From the IMG/VR virus record IMGVR_UViG_2698536657_000017, positions 1-35,026 of that record: 35,026 nt of DNA. One strand, 5' to 3'. Source of the stretch: a virus. Its lineage: Duplodnaviria; Heunggongvirae; Uroviricota; Caudoviricetes. A program made the position numbers and the translations under genes. Shown in pieces: positions 1 through 21,068 of the stretch. Position 1 is the stretch's first letter. Every line of letters starts with the position of its first letter. Below the pieces are notes generated by a model, which was not told the origin of the DNA, searched no databases, and saw only the letters and a program-made list of their open reading frames with translations.

Positions 1-651
1 TTAGTCTTTATCTGCCGGACTTAAGGTCACAGAAGAGAGATAATTCAGCAGGGCGATATCGTTCTCGACACCCAGCTTCATCATCGCAGATTTCTTCTGG
101 CTACTGATGGTTTTAATACTGCGGTTCAGCTTTTTAGCGATCTCGGTCACCAGGAAGCCTTCCGCAAACAGGCGCAGAACTTCACTCTCTTTTGGGGAGA
201 GACGCTTGTCACCGTAACCACCAGCACTGATTTTTTCCAACAGGCGAGAAACGCTTTCCGGGGTAAATTTCTTCCCTTTCTGCAGCGCGGCGAGAGCTTT
301 CGGCAGATCGGTCGGTGCACCTTGTTTCAGCACGATCCCTTCGATATCCAGATCCAATACCGCACTAAGAATCGCCGGGTTGTTGTTCATGGTCAGAACA
401 ATGATCGACAGGCTTGGGAAATGGCGCTTGATGTACTTGATTAAGGTAATGCCATCGCCGTACTTATCGCCAGGCATGGAGAGATCGGTAATCAACACAT
501 GCGCATCCAGTTTCGGCAGGTTGTTGATCAGTGCTGTAGAGTCTTCAAATTCGCCGACAACATTCACCCACTCAATTTGCTCAAGTGATTTGCGAATACC
601 GAACAAGACTATCGGATGGTCATCGGCAATAATTACGTTCATATTGTTCAT
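1..651 (-). CDS. rcsB: Rcs phosphorelay response regulator RcsB, complete (216 aa)
   Basis: Full ORF MNNMNVIIADDHPIVLFGIRKSL...SVTLSPADKD. It has a receiver domain (DD..D..K pattern) plus a LuxR/FixJ-type C-terminal HTH (LSPKESEVLRLFAEGFLVTEIAKKLNRSIKTISSQK). It matches my memory of E. coli RcsB end to end. Confidence 0.97.
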   Translation of the reverse strand: MNNMNVIIADDHPIVLFGIRKSLEQIEWVNVVGEFEDSTALINNLPKLDAHVLITDLSMPGDKYGDGITLIKYIKRHFPSLSIIVLTMNNNPAILSAVLDLDIEGIVLKQGAPTDLPKALAALQKGKKFTPESVSRLLEKISAGGYGDKRLSPKESEVLRLFAEGFLVTEIAKKLNRSIKTISSQKKSAMMKLGVENDIALLNYLSSVTLSPADKD

Positions 652-695
652 GTACTTGTACCTATGTATTAACTATTTGATTTTAAAAATATATT

Positions 696-1985
696 CTATG
701 CTTTGTTTAGTCGTTGGGGCACCTGTGGGACATAAGTACATAGCTTTCTGTTTAGTACTTCTACCTGGGACTGGTTATTGTCTTTCATCCATGCACCGTA
801 AACATTGTAAACCATCTGGGCATTCGCATGTCCCATCTGGTTGGCTATGAAGTTTGGATTTGCTCCGGCAGTTAAAGCCCAGCAAGCATAAGTATGCCGA
901 GACTGATACGCTTTTCTATGGCGAATTTTTGCTCGTTTTAATGCAGATTCCCATGTTCTGTTGATGGATGTTACGGCATAATGAACTCCTGAGTTACCTG
1001 TGCGATCTAATATCTGAGGATTGAAAACAAAGCTGCATGAGTGAGTGCTTGTCCGGCCATACTCTCGCAGCTTTACTTCTATCTGATATTGTTTACCAAG
1101 CCTGGTTAATGTCGCCTGATTTTTTAATACGTCAATTGCTGGCTGTATGAGTTGTATTACCCTGTTTGTTCCTGCATCTGTTTTGGGTAGTGTAAATTCC
1201 TTTGTCTGAGTGTAATTCCTTTTGACGGTCAAGGTACCCGCTTCCAGATCGATATCCTCCCATGCCAGCCCACACAGTTCGCCATGCCGCATCCCGGTAT
1301 ATACAGCCAGCGACCAGAAATTTTTAGTTTGCTGGTGGTGGCACGCATCAATCAGTCTGGCAAACTCATCTTTTGTTAGTGGATCGGGAGGTGTTTTCGC
1401 TCTTTTCAGTGATGGAAGCTCACTGAAAGGGTTTTTGCCTATATACCCATTGTTTGCCGCAAAACGGAACATCCCGGAGATAATTGTCATATAGCTATTT
1501 ACAGTAGGTACACTACGACCTTTAATAGGCTTCCTCTGATTTTTTCCTGGCAACTGATATCCCGTTAATAATTCTTTACGAAAAATGAGAACATCTTCCT
1601 GTGTAATTGATGATGCCAGTTTGTTCCCTCCAAGGCAGTCAAGGCAATTTCGGATAGCTGATTTGTATCTGACCATGGCATTTGCTGTTATTTCCATTTT
1701 CTTAAGCTCAAGCCATTTTTCCGAAAGTGCCTTAATGGTTATCTCTTTTTTTCCCAGACCAAAGTGTTTCAGGTTAGGGGAATTAGGGAACTGCGCGGCG
1801 TAGTCGAAGCTCCCCATTCTGATTGCAAAACAAACGGAAGTACGAAGTTCACCTGCGATCTTCCGGTTTTTGGCGGTGTCAGGAACACCGAGGTTTTCTC
1901 TGACACGTTTGCCGTTATAGTGAAACCATATGCGGAGTGATCCGCCATGGTTTTCAACGCCTGTCGGGTATGATGCGTTACTCAT
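696..1985 (-). CDS. int: Tyrosine recombinase / phage integrase (429 aa)
   Basis: N-terminal arm-binding-type segment (GSLRIWFHYNGKRVRENLG). C-terminal catalytic signature: R in TGMRHGEL, HxxR-like SRHTYACW, GHAN, and Y in VYNVYGAW. It is the first phage gene next to host DNA and is followed by xis. Confidence 0.9.
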   Translation of the reverse strand: MSNASYPTGVENHGGSLRIWFHYNGKRVRENLGVPDTAKNRKIAGELRTSVCFAIRMGSFDYAAQFPNSPNLKHFGLGKKEITIKALSEKWLELKKMEITANAMVRYKSAIRNCLDCLGGNKLASSITQEDVLIFRKELLTGYQLPGKNQRKPIKGRSVPTVNSYMTIISGMFRFAANNGYIGKNPFSELPSLKRAKTPPDPLTKDEFARLIDACHHQQTKNFWSLAVYTGMRHGELCGLAWEDIDLEAGTLTVKRNYTQTKEFTLPKTDAGTNRVIQLIQPAIDVLKNQATLTRLGKQYQIEVKLREYGRTSTHSCSFVFNPQILDRTGNSGVHYAVTSINRTWESALKRAKIRHRKAYQSRHTYACWALTAGANPNFIANQMGHANAQMVYNVYGAWMKDNNQSQVEVLNRKLCTYVPQVPQRLNKA

Positions 1986-2018
1986 TAAACCTCCCAGACG
2001 TCCAGGAGCATTAACAGG

Positions 2019-2273
2019 TTAACCGGAACTTGCATTTTTGGCACCTGGTTGTTTCTGGTTTTCGATCCAGCGCATAATTTCCTCAATGTTGTATACACAT
2101 TCACTGAAAGGCCCGGGCTCTCCTTCTGCTGCGTAATGACGGTATTCTTTCCCCAGTAACCAGGATTTTTTTCTTGCTCTGGCAATGGTTCCTGATTTCA
2201 GTCCAGTTGCAGCAATAAGGGTTCTTTCTGTGCACCATTTGCTGGGCGTTATCTGATAGATGATTGTTTCCAT
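2019..2273 (-). CDS. xis: Excisionase-like protein (84 aa)
   Basis: Small ORF directly upstream of int on the same strand. The segment TGLKSGTIARARKKSWLLGKEYRH resembles the DUF1233-type putative excisionase family from memory. Confidence 0.7.
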   Translation of the reverse strand: METIIYQITPSKWCTERTLIAATGLKSGTIARARKKSWLLGKEYRHYAAEGEPGPFSECVYNIEEIMRWIENQKQPGAKNASSG

Positions 2274-2280
2274 TCCTGAC

Positions 2281-2427
2281 TCACACTATCTTCAGGCCAC
2301 GGCAGTGGCACCACACGTCAAACATTCGCTTTACAACTTCACGGCAGTAGAAGCCGTGAGCATCTCTGGTTAAATCGTATCGGTACCCGTATCTGAGTCG
2401 TATCCATATTTCAAACTCGCGATTCAC
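2281..2427 (-). CDS. Hypothetical small protein (48 aa, GTG start)
   Basis: Hand-translated VNREFEIWIRLRYGYRYDLTRDAHGFYCREVVKRMFDVWCHCRGLKIV. GGAG lies upstream of the GTG. It fills the gap between neighbouring genes in a packed operon. It is below the ORF-track size cutoff. Confidence 0.35.
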   Translation of the reverse strand: MNREFEIWIRLRYGYRYDLTRDAHGFYCREVVKRMFDVWCHCRGLKIV

Positions 2428-2447
2428 GACTTATTCTCCTGCTGTCT

Positions 2448-2690
2448 TTATGCCAGTTCATCCGGTTGCGCTGGGGCCCAGGCCTTCCGTGGCCTGTATT
2501 TGCGGCGTTTTCTGGCTTCAATGCGTATCTTTGTCACCCTGACTGGCTTTGGTTCGTGCCGGAACACTTTGTTTCTGATATTACGCCGTGTATTCATCAT
2601 CCAGATAAAACGCTGGGTATGGTCGCATCCGTCATCAACGGTAATTACTGTGCGGACCAGTTCATCGTTAATATCAACCATTTCACCCAT
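2448..2690 (-). CDS. Hypothetical early protein with a very basic C-terminus (80 aa)
   Basis: Its start overlaps the stop of the upstream gene by 8 nt, which is operon packing. The C-terminal tail KIRIEARKRRKYRPRKAW is very basic. No family recognised. Confidence 0.5.
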   Translation of the reverse strand: MGEMVDINDELVRTVITVDDGCDHTQRFIWMMNTRRNIRNKVFRHEPKPVRVTKIRIEARKRRKYRPRKAWAPAQPDELA

Positions 2691-13425: not shown

Positions 13426-13503
13426 AGCCGGAGATATCCAGTAGACATTTTCCCCCTGAGCATTCAAATCAGAAAAAGTATGGTTACAGCGGAGTACAGA
13501 ATA

Positions 13504-13929
13504 ATGCGTGATATCCAACAGGTTCTGTCCCGATGGGGTGCATGGGTGGTAAATAATCATGAGAGTGTGGCATGGTCCGGCGTCGCTGCCGGATTTAAGG
13601 GAGTGATCCCATCAAAGGTTAAATCACGGCCTCAGTGTACCGATGATGATGCGCTGATTATCAGCAATTGCATGGCGCAACTGAACGTCAACAACAGCGA
13701 TTTGCATGATTTTCTGTATGATTATTATGTGTTCGGGATGACGCTTATGGGACTGGGCCGTAAGCATGAGCGCTCTGATTGCTGGGCCGGGCGGGTACTG
13801 CAAAAAGCTGAAGGTGTTATTGAGGGGATGTTGATTATGCAGGGAATAAAACTGGAAATGGACAGATACGTTGAGCGTGAACGATCAGGGGCACAGGTCA
13901 GTCAGTTTTCCGGACATACGGGAAATTGA
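13504..13929 (+). CDS. Q: Late-gene antiterminator Q, phage 82/21 (QuuD-like) type (141 aa)
   Basis: [60 protein letters not shown] matches my memory of Q82/QuuD-family proteins. I preferred this start over 13480 because GGAG lies upstream of it. Confidence 0.85.
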
Positions 13930-13953: not shown

Positions 13954-14019
13954 GACTGCGGGTGCTTGAGGGTGTCTGCCTCGGGCATGCTGCCGTAAGG
14001 CAGACGGAGAAAAGCCCCA

Positions 14020-14080
14020 GTTAACATTACGCGTCCTGCAAGACGCTTAACATTAATCTGAGGCCAATTTCATGCTGAAC
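14020..14080 (-). ncRNA. sok: Sok-like antisense RNA (boundaries approximate)
   Basis: Minus-strand promoter TTGCCT-17-TAACCT (-35 at 14110-14115, -10 at 14087-14092) points into the hok leader. The transcript would be complementary to the upstream in-frame ATG (14072) region. It contains the hairpin GCGTC-N6-GACGC (14031-14046). Confidence 0.4.
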
Positions 14081-14128
14081 ACATGTAGGTTAGCCTCTTA
14101 CGTGCCGAAAGGCAAGGAGAAGCAGGCT

Positions 14129-14284
14129 ATGAAGCAGCAAAAGGCGATGTTAATCGCCCTGATCGTCATCTGTTTAACCGTCATTCTGACGGTACTGGTA
14201 GCGAGGAAAGACCTCTGCGATGTACGAATCCGAACCGGCCAGACGGAGGTCGCTGTCTTCGTAGACTACGAATCTGAGAAGTAA
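14129..14284 (+). CDS. hok: Hok/Gef-family type I toxin, HokD/RelF-like (51 aa)
   Basis: MKQQKAMLIALIVICLTVILTVLVARKDLCDVRIRTGQTEVAVFVDYESEK is near-identical in pattern to RelF/HokD as I remember it. AAGGAG RBS. The upstream leader resembles the hok mRNA fold-back elements. An in-frame upstream ATG at 14072 occupies the mok position. Confidence 0.9.
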   Translation: MKQQKAMLIALIVICLTVILTVLVARKDLCDVRIRTGQTEVAVFVDYESEK

Positions 14285-14458
14285 GAGACCTGGCGGGGGA
14301 GTAATCTCCCGCCCCCTCTGATGTGTCAGGCATCCTCAACGCACCCGTACTTTAGTTGTCATATGCTCCGCAAAATGCAGGTTGTCGTTGCAACCCGTGC
14401 GGTAATTTTTTGTGTGCGAGTGCTCAAAAAACGTTGATTTTCATAAAAGGACGATTTT

Positions 14459-16543
14459 ATGCTGCCAGACCAGCGACCAGCGACCAGCGACCGTAAATCA
14501 AGAAAGTCTGTAAAATCTGTTGAACCAGACATTGCCGACCGGGCTAACAACTGGCTCAAATCTTATGGACTTGATTACAAACTGGAGCAGGCACCACTTA
14601 ACAACGAGATCGATAACGCACTGGATGCTTATTTTTCGAAAAATGGCGGCACAGGCGGTAATCGTCCCGACGTAAAACTCCTTGTTCAGGACAAATACGG
14701 CAAGCAGTATCCCGTTCTCATCGAGTATAAAGGCTACAAGGACAGGCTTATCAGACTTGGCAGCAACGGTATTATTGAGAACAAAGATGCCAGAAAAGAA
14801 TGGAATTTTAAAAATATTAATGGATACGCGGTGAATGGCGCAGTCCATTATGCCAACGCACTTCTTCAGTTCACCAATTACCCTGATATTATTGCTATTG
14901 GTATGACCGGCTGGCGCGATGATGGTACAGGCGAACTGCATCATGAAATCGGCGTGTGGTACGTATCAAAGAATAATTTAGGAGCCGGGCAGAAGGTTGG
15001 TGAATTCACCGACTTATCGTTCCTTGCTGACAAAAATGTTGATGGATTTCTCAACAAGATAAAGCTGCTTAATCTTCCTCCCGAAGAACTGGAAAAAATC
15101 AAGGCCAGCAAAGAGGAAGAGATAGACACGCGACTTTCCCGTCTGAATAACGATATTTACCAGAATGAAAAGGGGCTTGGTGAAAGCGATCGTGTTTACC
15201 TTGTTGTGGCTACCGTTATTGCAACGTTGGGGATTCCGGGAAAGTTAGCACCGCTGGATAAAAAAGAACTGACCTCTTCAACGGAGGAGGACTTGCGTGA
15301 TGGTGATATTATTTTCAGGAAAATAAGGAATTTTTTAAGGCTGAAAGCTGTTCCTGAAACAAAAAGAGAAATGATTTTGCGCTCGTTGCAAAATACGCTG
15401 TGGACTGAAAACATTAACAAACCAGTCAACGGTGAAAGCCAGTTAAAGCGCGTGTTTGTTAAAGTTGTTGATGATCTTGGGGAGTATTACAAAATCGGAC
15501 TGACCACTGATTTTACGGGCAAACTGTTTAATGAGATGTATCGCTGGCTTGGATTTACGCAGGACAAACTCAATGACGTCGTTCTGACACCACCTTATGT
15601 TGCCACATTGCTGGCACGACTCGCCAGAGTAAACAAAGATTCCTATGTGTGGGATTTTGCTACAGGTTCTGCGGGATTGCTTGTGGCTGCAATGAATGAA
15701 ATGCTCATTGACGCCAGAGAAAATATTCACTCACCGAATGAACTACAACTTAAGGAAGCGCAAATCAAGGCTGAACAGCTTCTTGGCCTTGAGGTGTTAT
15801 CCAGTATTTATATGCTGGCCATCCTGAATATGATTTTGATGGGGGATGGTAGCTCGAATATCCTCAATAAAGACTCGCTAGCCGATTTTGACGGCAAGTA
15901 TGGATTTGGGAAAACAGGAGAAAAATTCCCTGCGGACGCATTTATTCTCAATCCTCCGTATTCAGCTAAAGGTAACGGCATGATTTTCGTGCAGAAGGCG
16001 CTGTCGATGATGGATAAAGGCTATGCTGCAGTGATTATCCAGAGTTCAGCCGGCACAGGAAAGGCTACGGAGTACAACAAAAAAATACTCAAGGAAAATA
16101 CCTTGCTGGCAAGCATCAAAATGCCTGCGGATCTGTTTATTGGTAAATCAAGCGTTCAGACGTACATTTACGTTTTTCAGGTAAAAATTCCGCATAACGC
16201 GAAACAGGCTGTTAAGTTTATCGACTTTTCCAATGACGGCTATGCTCGCTCTAATCGCAAAAAGGCAAGAAACAATCTTGTTGATGCCGATCGTGCAAAA
16301 GAGCGTTATCAGGAGGTTGTGGATCTGGTTCACTTCGGGAAAGGTTGCCTTAATATCTTTACGGAGGATGAATATTTTGAGGGAACAATCGATCCTGATA
16401 GTGGTGAGGACTGGAATCAGACCAGGCCAGTAGATGCTAGGCCAACGCTGGATGATTTCAAAAAGACGGTAGGTGATTACCTTGCATGGGAGGTCTCGCA
16501 ATTACTGAAAAAACAAGGTGAAAACAATTTTGCGGGAAAGTAA
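14459..16543 (+). CDS. Fused PD-ExK nuclease plus gamma-class N6-adenine DNA methyltransferase, BcgI-A-like RM subunit (694 aa)
   Basis: N-terminal D71-X17-E89-x-K91 (NRPDVKLLV...PVLIEYKG, nt 14666-14731). MTase motif I DFATGSAG (15653-15676) precedes motif IV NPPY (15950-15961). AAGGA RBS. It is followed by an HsdS-like gene, and no HsdR-like gene is present. Confidence 0.85.
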   Translation: MLPDQRPATSDRKSRKSVKSVEPDIADRANNWLKSYGLDYKLEQAPLNNEIDNALDAYFSKNGGTGGNRPDVKLLVQDKYGKQYPVLIEYKGYKDRLIRLGSNGIIENKDARKEWNFKNINGYAVNGAVHYANALLQFTNYPDIIAIGMTGWRDDGTGELHHEIGVWYVSKNNLGAGQKVGEFTDLSFLADKNVDGFLNKIKLLNLPPEELEKIKASKEEEIDTRLSRLNNDIYQNEKGLGESDRVYLVVATVIATLGIPGKLAPLDKKELTSSTEEDLRDGDIIFRKIRNFLRLKAVPETKREMILRSLQNTLWTENINKPVNGESQLKRVFVKVVDDLGEYYKIGLTTDFTGKLFNEMYRWLGFTQDKLNDVVLTPPYVATLLARLARVNKDSYVWDFATGSAGLLVAAMNEMLIDARENIHSPNELQLKEAQIKAEQLLGLEVLSSIYMLAILNMILMGDGSSNILNKDSLADFDGKYGFGKTGEKFPADAFILNPPYSAKGNGMIFVQKALSMMDKGYAAVIIQSSAGTGKATEYNKKILKENTLLASIKMPADLFIGKSSVQTYIYVFQVKIPHNAKQAVKFIDFSNDGYARSNRKKARNNLVDADRAKERYQEVVDLVHFGKGCLNIFTEDEYFEGTIDPDSGEDWNQTRPVDARPTLDDFKKTVGDYLAWEVSQLLKKQGENNFAGK
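14468..14492 (+). repeat. Heptanucleotide tandem repeat (GACCAGC) x3.6 inside codons 4-12 of the RM gene
   Basis: Perfect period-7 identity across 14468-14492 (gaccagc gaccagc gaccagc gacc). The unit length is not a multiple of 3. Confidence 0.9.
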
Positions 16544-16602
16544 ATTCCCCGCTCAGCGATAAATTAAGAAGCGTTGAGTGGGGAGAGTTCAGGATTGGCG
16601 AT

Positions 16603-17139
16603 TTGTTCTATGTGAGCACAGGCTCGCTTATCTCCTCAGGAAGATTAAAACCAGGCAAAATTAAACGTGTTTCAGCAAAGAGCGATCAAAACGGTATCAT
16701 CGGAGAGTTTGATACCGAGTTTATGGATGATGCAAGGCATTATGAAAATTTTATAAGCGTTAATTTTTTTGGAGATGCTTTTTATCATCCTTATTGTGCC
16801 AGCGTAGAAATGAAGGTGCATGTTCTTACATTAAAATCAAGTAAGTCCGACTTTAATGCAAAGCGCGGACTGTATGTTGCCAGTATGATTAATAAAGCTT
16901 TAAAGGGGCGTTTTAATTATGGTCAACAGTTATCGAGTTCCAAACTCAGAGATGGAGAATATTTCATCTCATTACCAGTGAAAAATAATGAAATTGACTG
17001 GTTTTTTATGGATAATTATATAGAAGAGCTGGAAGCGGCCCATATAGAAGAGCTGGAAGCTTACTTGCTGGTTAGCGGACTCGCGGACTCGCGGACTCGC
17101 GGACTCGCGGACTCGCGGACTCGCGGACTCGCGGACTGA
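16603..17139 (+). CDS. HsdS-like specificity subunit, N-terminal half (TRD1 plus central helix), terminated inside or after an 8-mer repeat tract
   Basis: The frame is open from 16522. It has the conserved S-subunit N-terminal motif VEWGEFRIGDLF, a TRD-like body, and a coiled-coil FFMDNYIEELEAAHIEELEAYL. It then reads through the repeat as GLADSRTRGLADSRTRGLAD and stops at TGA 17137. The only start codon after the motif region is TTG at 16603. Confidence 0.7.
   Translation: MFYVSTGSLISSGRLKPGKIKRVSAKSDQNGIIGEFDTEFMDDARHYENFISVNFFGDAFYHPYCASVEMKVHVLTLKSSKSDFNAKRGLYVASMINKALKGRFNYGQQLSSSKLRDGEYFISLPVKNNEIDWFFMDNYIEELEAAHIEELEAYLLVSGLADSRTRGLADSRTRGLAD
17018..17060 (+). repeat. In-frame 24-bp tandem duplication (ATATAGAAGAGCTGGAAGC core, x1.8) in the S central helix
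   Basis: Copies at 17018-17036 and 17042-17060 are identical and have a 24-nt period. They encode IEELEAAH/IEELEAYL. Confidence 0.85.
17075..17137 (+). repeat. Octanucleotide tandem repeat (GCGGACTC) x7.9 between the two halves of the S gene
   Basis: There are 7 perfect units at 17075-17130 plus 7 nt of an eighth. The unit length is not a multiple of 3. The flanking ORFs are in different frames (pos mod 3 = 1 upstream, 0 downstream). Confidence 0.97.
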
Positions 17140-17201
17140 TAAGCTATGAGCTTACACCGCAGGAATATAACGCGATTGAGCTATTAAATAGCAATAATCT
17201 T

Positions 17202-17723
17202 ATGTGGGGCACTTATAACCTCAAAAAGTTATTTGGCCCCGCAATAAGAGGTAAGCGTCTGAAAAACGCAGATCGTATTCCCGGATCCTTGCCTTTTGTT
17301 ACTGCGGGTGAAGGCAATGAAGGTATTTCTGCATTTATCAGTAATGATGTTGTTGTATTCCCTGAAAATACCATTACGATAGATATGTTTGGCTCCGCAA
17401 AATACAGAAATTATGAGTATGGTGCAGATGACCATGTGGCAGTTGTTCATACAGAATTCTTTGACAGAAATGCCGTTATTTTCATAACAGCATCAATTCA
17501 TAAGTCTTCTTGTACCGGAAAGTTCAACTACGGGAGAAATTTCTATGCAAAAGATGCCGACGAGTTAATGGTATCTTTGCCGTCAAAAGATAATAACCCT
17601 GATTATTCTTTCATGGAGACGCTAATTTTAGCAGTACATAAACTGGTCATCAAAGATGTTGTCCAGTACACTGATAAAAAGCTGGTAGCGTACAGGCAGA
17701 TTACATCTGAGAAGGTCGTTTAG
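17202..17723 (+). CDS. HsdS-like specificity subunit, C-terminal half (TRD2 plus C-terminal helix)
   Basis: MWGTYNLKKLF parallels WGEFRIGDLF of TRD1. Further parallels are MFGSAKYRNYEYG vs FFGDAFYHPYCAS, and VSLPSKDNNPDYSFMETLI vs ISLPVKNNEIDWFFMDNYI. The frame is open upstream through the repeat tract (...LISYELTPQEYNAIELLNSNNLM). Confidence 0.7.
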   Translation: MWGTYNLKKLFGPAIRGKRLKNADRIPGSLPFVTAGEGNEGISAFISNDVVVFPENTITIDMFGSAKYRNYEYGADDHVAVVHTEFFDRNAVIFITASIHKSSCTGKFNYGRNFYAKDADELMVSLPSKDNNPDYSFMETLILAVHKLVIKDVVQYTDKKLVAYRQITSEKVV

Positions 17724-17845
17724 TGCAAATCCCCACCTGACAGGGTGGGGAATGGTCAGGTTATCGTGCCCTGATGCAGAAAAACAGTTTACAATCGTAA
17801 AAATCATCATATCATGACAAAAGTGGTTACATTGCCACGCAGCCG

Positions 17846-17870
17846 AACCCGCCGATGCGCGGGTTTTTTG
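17846..17870 (+). terminator. Intrinsic terminator
   Basis: AACCCGC-cgat-GCGGGTT followed by a T6 run. Confidence 0.7.
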
Positions 17871-18050
17871 TATCCGGAATCCTGTGAGTTATACGGAAAG
17901 TACACAGAAAGGAAGGTGCGACCGCAATTAATAACAAAATCTTAAAAATTGCATATGGCACTATTAGTTTTCTAAATATTGTATATTTTGAGTATTGCAG
18001 GATATCCCCTGTAACGAAGTTTGCGTAACAGCATTTTACTCTACGAGTTT

Positions 18051-18081
18051 GCCAGCCTCCCCCAGTGGGCTGGCTTTTTTT
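18051..18081 (+). terminator. Intrinsic terminator
   Basis: GCCAGCC-tcccccagtg-GGCTGGC followed by T7. The T-run occurs only in the plus orientation. Confidence 0.65.
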
Positions 18082-18298
18082 ATCTGATGCGCTTCACATC
18101 AGGGTGACGTTCTGTTGCCGCTTCATGGAAAATGTCGCTGAGCCAGCCCGGTATCTCGTCTTCTGTCATATCGTCTGGAATGACAATATCGTATAACCGG
18201 GAGAATTTTCGTTCTGTCAGGTCTGCCCGGAAGACCAGCCAGTGATCACCTTCACGTTTGACACCAATATGTCGACCAAAGACGTTGTAGATTAGCAC
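18080..18298 (-). CDS. Hypothetical small acidic protein (72 aa, GTG start)
   Basis: AAGAGG RBS 6 nt upstream of the GTG. It is the only convincing minus-strand gene inside the rightward late region. No family recognised. Confidence 0.55.
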   Translation of the reverse strand: MLIYNVFGRHIGVKREGDHWLVFRADLTERKFSRLYDIVIPDDMTEDEIPGWLSDIFHEAATERHPDVKRIR

Positions 18299-18485
18299 TA
18301 TCGACCTCTTTCAGGAATTGTGTAACTGAGATGACAGATTCAGATTTCGTCAATAAATGCAAAATGTCAATCCTGAGATCATGGTGAGCTATCTGGCGGT
18401 TTTTTATATCTGTTTAACGGGGGATGTTACATACCTCACAATTCAGTCAGTTGAAGGTTGTCTGCCCGGATGAGAATTTGTTAGA

Positions 18486-18663
18486 AAATTTCTGCATGGT
18501 GAATCCCCCTGAGCGGAGGGGCATATCAGCGACAGGTGGTTGGTTATATCCCTTATCTGGTGCGGGTTCAGGTGCTGATACTGAACTCACCGGGAGGCAC
18601 CCGGCACCATGCAATGAACGGTACATAGCGCTACTCTTCAGCCCCTCTCCGGAGGGGCTTTTT
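18486..18663 (+). ncRNA. Candidate structured RNA / short terminated transcript, unit 1 (ends approximate)
   Basis: Promoter-like TTGAAG (18451-18456) with TGaGAATTT downstream. Closing helix TGCATGGTG (18493-18501) pairs with CACCATGCA (18605-18613). Hairpins CCCCT-N6-AGGGG and CCGGG-aggca-CCCGG. Terminator AGCCCCTC-tccg-GAGGGGCT-TTTT (18640-18663). Confidence 0.45.
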
Positions 18664-18752
18664 AATGAGGGGAAGACACTGGGCAGTGAAATGTTAAATC
18701 ACTCACAATTCAGGTAGTTGACGGTTGTCTGCTTGGCTGAGAATTTGTAAAA

Positions 18753-18939
18753 AAAATCCTGCATGGTGAATCCCCCTGTGCGGAGGGGCGACTGGTGAAT
18801 GGTATGATCTCTTTGATGATCGTAAGCGAGAATACGCGGGTTTGGTGGCACCAGGCCGAACTCACCGGGAGGCACCCGGCACCATGCAGTATACAGAGAT
18901 TAGGCATATACCAAGGCCCCTCATAGCAGGGGCCTTTTT
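18753..18939 (+). ncRNA. Candidate structured RNA / short terminated transcript, unit 2 (ends approximate)
   Basis: Promoter-like TTGACG with TGaGAATTT. Perfect 10-bp closing helix CTGCATGGTG (18759-18768) pairs with CACCATGCAG (18880-18889). It has the same two hairpins as unit 1. It has its own terminator AGGCCCCT-catagc-AGGGGCCT-TTTT (18914-18939). Confidence 0.45.
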
Positions 18940-19157
18940 ACATGCAAAAAAAGCCGCCCCGGGAAGAGCGGTTGGCAAGAAGAAAAGCAATATGAACAAT
19001 TAATTAACGATGGGAATAATACCTTAGAGTAATCACCTTGCGCAACTGTAAGGGCATATTTCATCTTTGCGGGCTGTTTTTCCGGGTGACTTCTGTGTTT
19101 CCGGAGGCCAGCCTGTACCTTCTCTGACTCAGAACATTATCCCGGCCGGGAGGATTC

Positions 19158-21068
19158 ATGGCATTTAAACACTATGACGTGGTCAGGGCGGCGTCGCCGT
19201 CAGACCTTGCGGAACGAATAACTCAAAAACTGAAGGAAGGGTGGCAGCCTTATGGTAGTGCGCTGATTTCGACAGCTGGTTATGGTGCGGAGTTCATCCA
19301 GCCAGTTGTGAGTGAGGGGAGCATCTCATCACCAGAGGAGCCAGGCAACCGTCCGACGACCTCAGCGCCTTCTGTTGCGCCAGAATATTACTATGTGATC
19401 GCGCTTGCTGGTCAGTCCAATGGTATGTCATACGGTGAGGGACTGCCATTACCGGATACATTCGACAGCCCTGATCCACGTATTAAACAGTTAGCGCGTC
19501 GCAGTACGGTGACACCGGGAGGTGCTGCATGTATCTATAACGATATTATCCCGGCAGATCACTGTCTCCATGATGTGGAGGATATGACAGGGCTTAATCA
19601 TCCCAAAGCGGATTTATCGAAAGGTCAGTACGGCTGTGTGGGACAGGGGCTGCATATCGCCAAAAAGCTTCTGCCATTTATACCGGCGAATGCGGGCATT
19701 CTTCTTGTTCCGTGCTGCCGTGGTGGTTCAGCTTTCACCACCGGAACCGATGGCACATACAGTGACACTACTGGCGCCTCAGAGAGTTCCACCCGCTGGG
19801 GGGTGGGCAGGCCGCTGTATAAGGACCTCATTGGTCGTACAAAAGCCGCGCTGGCGAAGAATCCGAAAAATGTGCTGCTTGCCGTGGTATGGATGCAAGG
19901 GGAATTTGATTTTAACGGAACGCCAGCGAATCATGCAGCCCGTTTTACAGAAGTGGTGGATCAATACCGTGCGGACCTTGCAGATATGGCGGGGCAGTGT
20001 GTGGGTGGCTCAGCTGACAGTGTTCCCTGGATTTGTGGAGACACAACATATTTCTGGAAGCAGAAGAACGAAACGGCGTACCAGACGGTGTACGGTAGTT
20101 ACAAAAATAAAACGGAAAAGAATATCCATTTCGTGCCGTTCATGACCGATGAGAACGGGGTGAATGTGCCGACGAACAAACCGGAAGAAGACCCGGATAT
20201 TCCGGATATCGGGTATTACGGTTCAAAATGGCGAACGGACAGAAGCACCTGGACATCTCAGGACAGGGCCAGTCATTTCAGTTCATGGGCTCGCCGTGGG
20301 ATTATTTCCGACCGTCTGGCAACGGCGATTCTGAGCTGCGCGGGTAAGTCTTCTGCGTTTGTTAATGGTACTGCCGGGGTGGTTGTTCCAGACAGACCGG
20401 TTACCACCTCAGAGTCTGTAATTTTTTACGATGCCAAAAAAGCTTCAGACAATCAGCTGAAACCTTATGGCTGGGACGGTATGGATGGCAGACGCACACT
20501 GGTTGATGACAGCGGCAATAAAGCTCTGCGAATTGAGAAAAATAACAGCGCGAAATCCTGGTCAATGTACTGTGATATTGCTGCAGACAAGGCAAAACTT
20601 TTACTGGAAAAAGGCGGGGAAATTGCTGTCCGGTTTAAAATCCCCGAAAACGTCAATCTTGAGACAACCAGAAACAAGTATGCCTTTGGTTTGTACTGGC
20701 GAATAGCGGAATGGCCGGGTGAGGGTGGTGAAGGCTATCTGAGTTCTTTCTTTGTCCAGACAGATAAAGCCAGTATTGATGTTGCATACCATCATACAGT
20801 TAATCAACAAAAAGAACTTGGCACGTTTGGCGCATTCGACCATGACTGGCATACGCTTGCATTTAAATTTAAGGGCAGTAACAGCATTAATGTTACTCCG
20901 GTGCTTGATGGTGTGGATGGACAGGCGTTTGACCTGGTGAAATGGGCCAATACTGCTAATGGACTCAACAGGTTTGTCATTACGGATATTACAGGTAGTG
21001 CAGAAACCTACCCTGTACTTATTGATACGGTGGAAGTTAAAGCAAACAAAGCTGGAGCAGCCGCATAA
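19158..21068 (+). CDS. nanS-p: Prophage sialate O-acetylesterase NanS-p type (DUF1737 N-terminus plus SASA/DUF303 esterase plus C-terminal domain), 636 aa
   Basis: N-terminal MAFKHYDVVRAASPSDLAERITQKLKEGWQPYGS (DUF1737-like). Esterase block YYYVIALAGQSNGMSYGEG with the GQSN motif. The size and the position downstream of the Q/stx slot match NanS-p genes of Stx phages, from memory. Confidence 0.85.
   Translation: MAFKHYDVVRAASPSDLAERITQKLKEGWQPYGSALISTAGYGAEFIQPVVSEGSISSPEEPGNRPTTSAPSVAPEYYYVIALAGQSNGMSYGEGLPLPDTFDSPDPRIKQLARRSTVTPGGAACIYNDIIPADHCLHDVEDMTGLNHPKADLSKGQYGCVGQGLHIAKKLLPFIPANAGILLVPCCRGGSAFTTGTDGTYSDTTGASESSTRWGVGRPLYKDLIGRTKAALAKNPKNVLLAVVWMQGEFDFNGTPANHAARFTEVVDQYRADLADMAGQCVGGSADSVPWICGDTTYFWKQKNETAYQTVYGSYKNKTEKNIHFVPFMTDENGVNVPTNKPEEDPDIPDIGYYGSKWRTDRSTWTSQDRASHFSSWARRGIISDRLATAILSCAGKSSAFVNGTAGVVVPDRPVTTSESVIFYDAKKASDNQLKPYGWDGMDGRRTLVDDSGNKALRIEKNNSAKSWSMYCDIAADKAKLLLEKGGEIAVRFKIPENVNLETTRNKYAFGLYWRIAEWPGEGGEGYLSSFFVQTDKASIDVAYHHTVNQQKELGTFGAFDHDWHTLAFKFKGSNSINVTPVLDGVDGQAFDLVKWANTANGLNRFVITDITGSAETYPVLIDTVEVKANKAGAAA

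Follow-up and report, generated by a model that had tools for sequence, protein, structure and literature searches.

The window, by which we mean the whole 35,026-nt stretch of DNA analysed here, begins on its minus strand with a complete rcsB gene and continues, upstream of rcsB and in the same orientation, into the integrase (int) and excisionase genes of a prophage (Table 1). Exactly 44 nt (695–652) separate the int stop codon (TAG, 698–696) from the rcsB start codon (ATG, 651–649). Past its stop the int frame reads N I F L K S N S and then TAA, and the rcsB ATG lies in another frame; these eight in-frame codons exist and carry no significance. No rcsD sequence was found anywhere in the 35,026-nt window, and in an unoccupied K-12-type locus rcsD stops 16 nt upstream of rcsB. 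The initial annotation had described the 44-nt distance (with the int stop at 696–698), the NIFLKSNS run ending in TAA and the lack of an rcsD gene that should stand on this side, and in all of these it read the sequence correctly.

Positions 400–1100 of the window are matched at 100% identity in eight complete Escherichia coli genomes and at ≥99.6% identity in five more, while in the remaining E. coli genomes the match stops at window position 654. Because this region recurs in identical or near-identical form across complete E. coli genomes, we take the junction, on the strength of these sequence comparisons, to be real and recurrent and not an artefact of assembly.

Table 1 Features of the window and sequences of the attachment-site junctions, with positions in window coordinates.
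Feature	Position	Strand	Remarks
rcsB	1–651	-	Complete 216-codon ORF, 216 aa; RefSeq protein WP_001061917, that of K-12 RcsB
Predicted strand-exchange (overlap) region, TGAACAA	644–650	-	7 bp; putatively at the midpoint of the two 8-bp inverted core-type repeats in deduced attP
att core, TACATGAACAA	654–644	-	11 bp
Predicted core-type Int-binding half-site, ACAAGTAC	652–659	-	8-bp inverted repeat with GTACTTGT, which lies beyond the window on the opposite attP arm
AGGT, Shine–Dalgarno-like	660–663	-	Phage-derived; 8 nt upstream of the rcsB ATG; stands in for native AAGGT
Predicted IHF consensus site, AATCAAATAGTTA	670–682	-	Perfect match to WATCAANNNNTTR; 18 nt from the rcsB ATG
Candidate sigma-70 promoter, TAAACA-18-TAAAAT	680–709	-	Reads into rcsB; overlaps the int stop and the IHF site
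Tyrosine integrase (int)	696–1985	-	429 aa; PF12167 N-terminal arm-DNA-binding domain (5.8e-24), PF00589 catalytic domain (2e-20)
Tandem arm-type-like motifs, ATGTCCCAcaggTGCCCCA	715–733	-	TGYCCCA; within the int 3′ end
Excisionase (xis)	2019–2273	-	84 aa; PF06806 (2e-27); annotated xisR in a related genome; adjoins int
Q antiterminator	13480–13929
hok/sok module	13960–14134 (sok)		In the stx slot
N6-adenine methyltransferase	14459–16543		694 aa; weak N-terminal VRR-NUC-like match
Two half-size HsdS-like ORFs	16603–17139; 17202–17723		In the stx slot
DUF7661 ORF			In the stx slot
sRNA STnc100, two tandem copies	18465–18670; 18732–18945
nanS-p-like esterase	19158–21068
attB			rcsD-to-rcsB direction: ...GCTGTAG-CAAGGTAGCCTAT-TACATGAACAA-TATGAACG...
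Far junction			rcsD-to-rcsB direction: ...CCTAT-TACATGAACAA-CGTACTTGTTGCATTTT...
Window junction			rcsD-to-rcsB direction: ...ATAGGTACAAG-TACATGAACAA-TATGAACG...

Both prophage ends share a core at the rcsB start codon

Three lysogens (2012EL-2448, CFIAFB20190167 and 04-00955) whose near junction is 100% identical to that of the window supplied the far junction, which has the same sequence in all of them. Aligning both ends to an empty rcsD–rcsB locus, as the initial annotation had proposed, defined an att core of 11 bp that spans the rcsB start codon; it is present in a single copy in the empty K-12 site and again at each prophage end, the far end as read in the three related genomes. The limits of megablast homology agree with this core, falling at window position 654 on the near side and at query position 158 on the K-12 junction probe. 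The first 8 nt of rcsB (ATGAACAA) fall within the core, and the homology between lysogen and empty site on the rcsD side extends through the last A of these 8 nt.

In all three lysogens rcsD is annotated at full length (2,673 bp, 890 codons) and lies, together with its stop and the original 16-bp spacer, 62–65 kb from rcsB. The insertion interrupts neither coding sequence, rcsB (216 codons) and rcsD (890 codons) both being full length, and is no insertional inactivation in the sense of a broken ORF. The initial annotation had placed the integration in, or just after, the 3′ end of rcsD, and this does not hold: the core overlaps the rcsB start codon, rcsD and its spacer are untouched in all three far junctions, and the rcsD C-terminus needs no restoring. 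Its further claim that the junction separates rcsB from rcsD and from promoters within rcsD stands, the far junction having put rcsD 62–65 kb away, and the separation extends to all promoters that lie upstream of the rcsB ATG. As read from these junctions, then, the prophage is inserted at the rcsB start codon, with rcsD and rcsB both complete and the rcsDB operon split. For the genome from which the window comes, we infer the core, attP and the integrity of rcsD from the genomes with a 100% identical near junction, and by the same comparison the far end of its own prophage is expected to read ...GCTGTAGCAAGGTAGCCTATTACATGAACAACGTACTTGTTGC...

What stays behind beside rcsD at the far junction is the native spacer, Shine–Dalgarno sequence and ATG, which now head an eight-codon ORF, MNNVLVAF, followed by a stop (L003 3222–3248). 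Nearby, on the strand running from the phage interior toward rcsD, a hairpin followed by a T-run (L003 3265–3253) resembles a terminator shielding rcsD from phage transcription.

The phage arm has the layout of a lambda-type attachment site

By its sequence, window 652–700 is one arm of a lambda-type site-specific recombination site, namely the compact arm on the int side (attL in lambda terms). The parental attP was reconstructed from the two junctions and is expected to read AGGTACAAGTACATGAACAACGTACTTGT; its exact junction, as it would occur in a free or circular form, was not found in IMG/VR viral or metagenome contigs, and attP stays deduced. The predicted 7-bp overlap region, a matter of sequence-level geometry, lies wholly inside the identity core, at core positions 4–10. 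A direct copy of the arm-type-like motifs, identical at 16 of 19 positions, occurs on the other attP arm at +128, and by a rough estimate a match of this quality would arise by chance between two 300-nt arms with P ~ 0.02.

The resemblance to the lambda Int/Xis/IHF system at attP and attB is one of gene order as well as of sites. Shared features are an arm-binding tyrosine integrase, a xis gene immediately upstream of int and an int gene abutting att, together with, at the level of sequence, a short identity core with inverted core-type sites, an adjacent IHF consensus and arm-type repeats on both arms. Unlike that of lambda, the attB here is not intergenic but lies over a start codon, that of a regulator gene, and the int-proximal arm is compact, with 44 nt from the int stop to the host ATG and with the arm-type motifs inside the int coding sequence.

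The insertion recurs in E. coli and in other genera

The junction is carried by 14 of 5,426 complete E. coli genomes, and a K-12 rcsD–rcsB junction probe is uninterrupted in 5,359 of 5,374 E. coli genomes. In public assemblies the exact integrase protein is indexed in 4,046 blocks, and among the matches listed it is followed by rcsB and rcsC in nine of nine places. Beyond E. coli, integrases 75–82% identical to that of the window precede rcsB, intact at 216 aa, in five more lineages, four of them genera and the fifth a metagenome contig. The int–rcsB gap is 44 nt in Cedecea sp., Kosakonia cowanii, Salmonella Reading and the metagenome contig and 50 nt in Trabulsiella guamensis.

Leaders were aligned for six phages, namely the window phage and those of Salmonella, Cedecea, Kosakonia, Trabulsiella and the metagenome contig. 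The IHF site lies at the same position in all six (exact in four, with one mismatch in two), and AGGT(A/G)CAA(A/G)TAC directly before ATGAACAA is likewise kept in all six, its AGGT invariant. The arm motifs are kept in six of six as well, and also in relatives that use other sites; outside the arm motifs, the IHF site and AGGT(A/G)CAA(A/G)TAC, the sequence has diverged.

Related integrases are found at other targets. One that is 78% identical lies upstream of sulA and ompA, about 300 bp from sulA (L027 2790–3100). Its arm is organized in the same way, as is the order of stop codon, IHF site and core, but the sequence next to the core differs. Integrases 67–69% identical use other sites in Leclercia, Scandinavium and Edwardsiella, and those of Leclercia and Scandinavium (68–69% identical; L005, L006 4278–4330) adjoin a palindrome, TAGGTTA..TAACCTA. 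Such sister integrases with other targets form a useful series for the study of shifts in integrase specificity.

At the DNA level the integrase gene had no match among phage database records. The closest integrases in the phage database are 71–73% identical over 99% of the length and belong to Stx/lambdoid prophages that integrate at yecE (PPyecE_EH1910, phage EH297 and YYZ-2008); these are likewise lambdoid but differ in target site, whereas the rcsB-targeting integrases found are 75–82% identical to that of the window. In the full-text literature, supplementary tables and many subscription journals excepted, no description of rcsB as an attachment site for a prophage was found. The rcsB start codon thus appears to be an undescribed attB, in which the mechanism is ordinary for a lambda-type phage and the target is new.

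Phage-derived sequence replaces the expression signals of rcsB

The insertion separates rcsB from every upstream promoter and from its native Shine–Dalgarno sequence. [quoted passage not shown] Regulation through PrcsDB and PrcsB cannot act on the displaced rcsB.

On the phage side, no terminator-like site was found on the rcsB strand between int and rcsB. The sigma-70 promoter at 709–680, which matches 9 of 12 consensus positions and is the only sigma-70-like match in window positions 500–2500, is a weak candidate predicted by sequence. In a position-weight-matrix scan that used approximate hexamer frequencies, and whose scores are therefore rough, the same −10 position ranked at or near the top in five of the six phages, and the −35 was not conserved. 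This −10 falls on the A/T tract that flanks the IHF site, and the sulA-proximal relative has a similar tract. A consensus scan of the rcsB strand of the Trabulsiella int–rcsB spacer gave no promoter match. The notion of a conserved phage promoter for rcsB was rejected on these grounds: conservation is limited to a −10 that sits on the IHF flank, and one spacer has no match on the rcsB strand.

Translation signals are predicted to be similar to those of the empty locus. The Shine–Dalgarno pairing energy is predicted at −3.7 kcal/mol for the phage AGGT versus −3.9 kcal/mol for the native sequence, and the cost of opening the initiation region at 8.5 kcal/mol for the phage leader versus 6.8 kcal/mol for the native one. 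Shine–Dalgarno mimicry as an adaptation is nonetheless unproven, because equal strength is reached by 15–24% of random phage 17-mers and AGGT lies inside a conserved core-type site; its conservation may reflect solely its membership in the Int core-binding site.

Predicted consequences for rcsB expression

Taken as a whole, the locus is best explained as a lambda-type att site at the start of rcsB, from which rcsB is probably still expressed, with its level and regulation uncoupled from rcsD and from RcsB autoregulation. Under this model the integrase would recognize the 11-bp core TACATGAACAA spanning the start codon, and phage DNA would supply the opening 8 nt of rcsB on integration, which accounts for rcsD and rcsB both being complete. 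rcsB is left directly downstream of xis–int, in the same orientation, behind a 44-nt phage-derived leader. Neither the promoter upstream of rcsD nor the promoter inside it would any longer reach rcsB, and its transcription would therefore have to come from the phage side, either by read-through from int (there being no terminator between) or from the weak candidate promoter of the att arm, or by the two together. The phage AGGT, predicted to equal the native site in strength, would serve to initiate translation, and upon prophage induction read-through from pL would be expected to drive rcsB hard. We thus predict altered rcsB expression, and Rcs signalling could be affected.

The first alternative is that the site is neutral, the promoter and Shine–Dalgarno sequence of the phage arm restoring roughly normal rcsB expression with no Rcs phenotype, and we regard this as possible but doubtful. 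It is favoured by an rcsB left whole in 13 of 14 complete lysogen genomes and in the five lineages beyond E. coli, by a predicted Shine–Dalgarno strength equivalent to the native one, by the conserved position of the candidate −10 and by how common the arrangement is in public assemblies. Yet a 44-nt arm cannot stand in for native regulation, which includes the co-transcription of rcsB with rcsD and the repression of PrcsDB by RcsB itself; the phages do not share the −35, the Trabulsiella spacer has no promoter-like match on the rcsB strand, and att function alone accounts for the conserved elements. The initial annotation had reserved neutrality for the case in which both the native rcsD 3′ end and the rcsB promoter are retained at the junctions; of these the rcsD 3′ end is kept, whereas rcsB no longer has its native promoter region and Shine–Dalgarno sequence beside it.

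At the other extreme, the insertion could render rcsB silent or hypomorphic, so that lysogens would be RcsB-deficient and excision, by restoring the operon, would make of the prophage a reversible switch. int transcription in a repressed lambda-type lysogen is normally low, as is established for lambda, and given this, rcsB could by analogy be under-expressed; in addition, the native promoters are all displaced by about 60 kb. In one lysogen, FHI_NMBU_10, an IS3-family element also interrupts rcsB 117 nt from its start (L012 2155–4116), and large insertions in rcsB are otherwise very rare (one of 14 lysogens versus about two of about 5,360 non-lysogens; about three of 5,374 complete genomes overall). 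We caution against reading these counts as an enrichment of rcsB disruption in lysogens, since they turn on one event and are anecdotal; the element hints at relaxed selection. Loss-of-function mutations of rcsB have also been reported to be widespread in Shiga toxin-producing E. coli (STEC) and discussed as adaptive (PMC10562709). We nevertheless consider silencing unlikely, because the other lysogens and the other genera show a perfectly conserved rcsB ORF, no terminator isolates it from phage transcription, a usable Shine–Dalgarno sequence is predicted and the IS3 case is a single event.

An integration within or right behind the 3′ end of rcsD, with the C-terminus of the protein cut short or rebuilt, would draw only on the absence of rcsD from the window side and is highly improbable, given that rcsD is kept whole at the far junction, together with its stop, the 16-bp spacer and ATGAACAA, and that the near end matches the empty site up to window position 654 and the far end up to the last A of ATGAACAA. 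That rcsD is deleted or naturally absent, or that the junction is an assembly artefact, has nothing behind it beyond the limited extent of the window and is more improbable still, as an identical junction occurs in many independent complete and thousands of draft assemblies and rcsD lies 62–65 kb away at the other prophage end in related genomes; for these genomes the natural absence of rcsD, raised by the initial annotation, is refuted by the full-length gene found there.

An attachment site in the locus of a global regulator

Prophages are known from other regulator loci. The Stx1 prophage of E. coli O157:H7 inserts in yehV/mlrA and phi10403S in comK of Listeria, the latter being known as ‘active lysogeny’. 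As at rcsB, these att sites lie in the locus of a global regulator, and lysogeny or excision could change host regulation; there, however, the coding sequence is interrupted, whereas the rcsB ORF is rebuilt whole and the change is confined to its promoter, its 5′ UTR and its operon linkage to rcsD. Phage 21 and e14 integrate in icd, where phage sequence reconstitutes the end of the gene. They resemble the present phage in that phage DNA duplicates a part of a host gene that the crossover would otherwise remove, but they rebuild a 3′ end, whereas here it is the 5′ end (8 nt) that is rebuilt, which swaps expression signals rather than a C-terminus.

RcsB is the master regulator of the Rcs envelope-stress system and controls colanic-acid capsule, flagella, curli and biofilm, as well as GadE-dependent acid resistance and, in enterohaemorrhagic E. 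coli (EHEC), virulence regulation. We tentatively suggest, as an idea that may well prove wrong, that a clade of temperate phages of the Enterobacteriaceae is specialized on the rcsB start codon and expresses rcsB from phage signals only, thereby controlling the Rcs master regulator, with excision restoring rcsDB. If so, the phage signals would be the att-arm promoter, int read-through and, on induction, pL read-through; capsule, motility, biofilm and acid resistance would be re-tuned in lysogens; and lysogenic conversion would proceed by replacement of a promoter and 5′ UTR and not by cargo genes. If rcsB expression is unchanged, the site is simply one more conserved att site.

The prophage family is present in thousands of public E. 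coli assemblies and has relatives in Salmonella, Kosakonia, Cedecea and Trabulsiella, and each member cuts rcsB off from rcsD and from its own promoters, which makes the family a natural experiment on how far the Rcs system depends on operon structure and autoregulation. A prophage at rcsB could explain differences in stress fitness among strains of non-O157 STEC, and the site adds to the list of attB sites for typing the insertion sites of Stx-like prophages.

The prophage and its cargo

The prophage is a lambdoid phage of about 60 kb that resembles Stx phages. Its genes in the window include those for a CI-like repressor (helix-turn-helix and S24 peptidase domains), a helicase, a Q antiterminator and a nanS-p-like esterase, as well as a primase, so named after its annotated homologue in a related genome; late genes, among them one for an N4-gp56-type capsid protein, were assigned by homology to annotated related genomes. 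No stx genes were found in the window. Classification as a Stx-converting phage was rejected, stxA and stxB being absent between the Q antiterminator and the lysis/nanS-p region, where other cargo is found.

That cargo occupies the usual stx slot (window positions 13960–19000, between Q and the nanS-p-like esterase; Table 1), in which no tRNA genes were detected. The first of the two HsdS-like ORFs ends, just before its stop, in about 2.5 tandem copies of the peptide GLADSRTR (~17080–17139), and could encode a specificity subunit that is phase-variable through this repeat.

Further cargo is seen beside rcsD at the far prophage end of related genomes, where a gene for a 1,330-aa S6-family (SPATE-type) autotransporter peptidase (L003 3771–7763; L011 23981–27973) is accompanied by genes for YadA-like adhesins and by an 8.4-kb gene with an LPD38 domain. 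In these STEC-like strains such genes are possible virulence cargo. Related prophages of 2012EL-2448 carry ISEc8 (IS66 family) and IS1 in the early region (L002 23657–25969 and 29697–30394), both absent from the window’s prophage, which looks less degraded.
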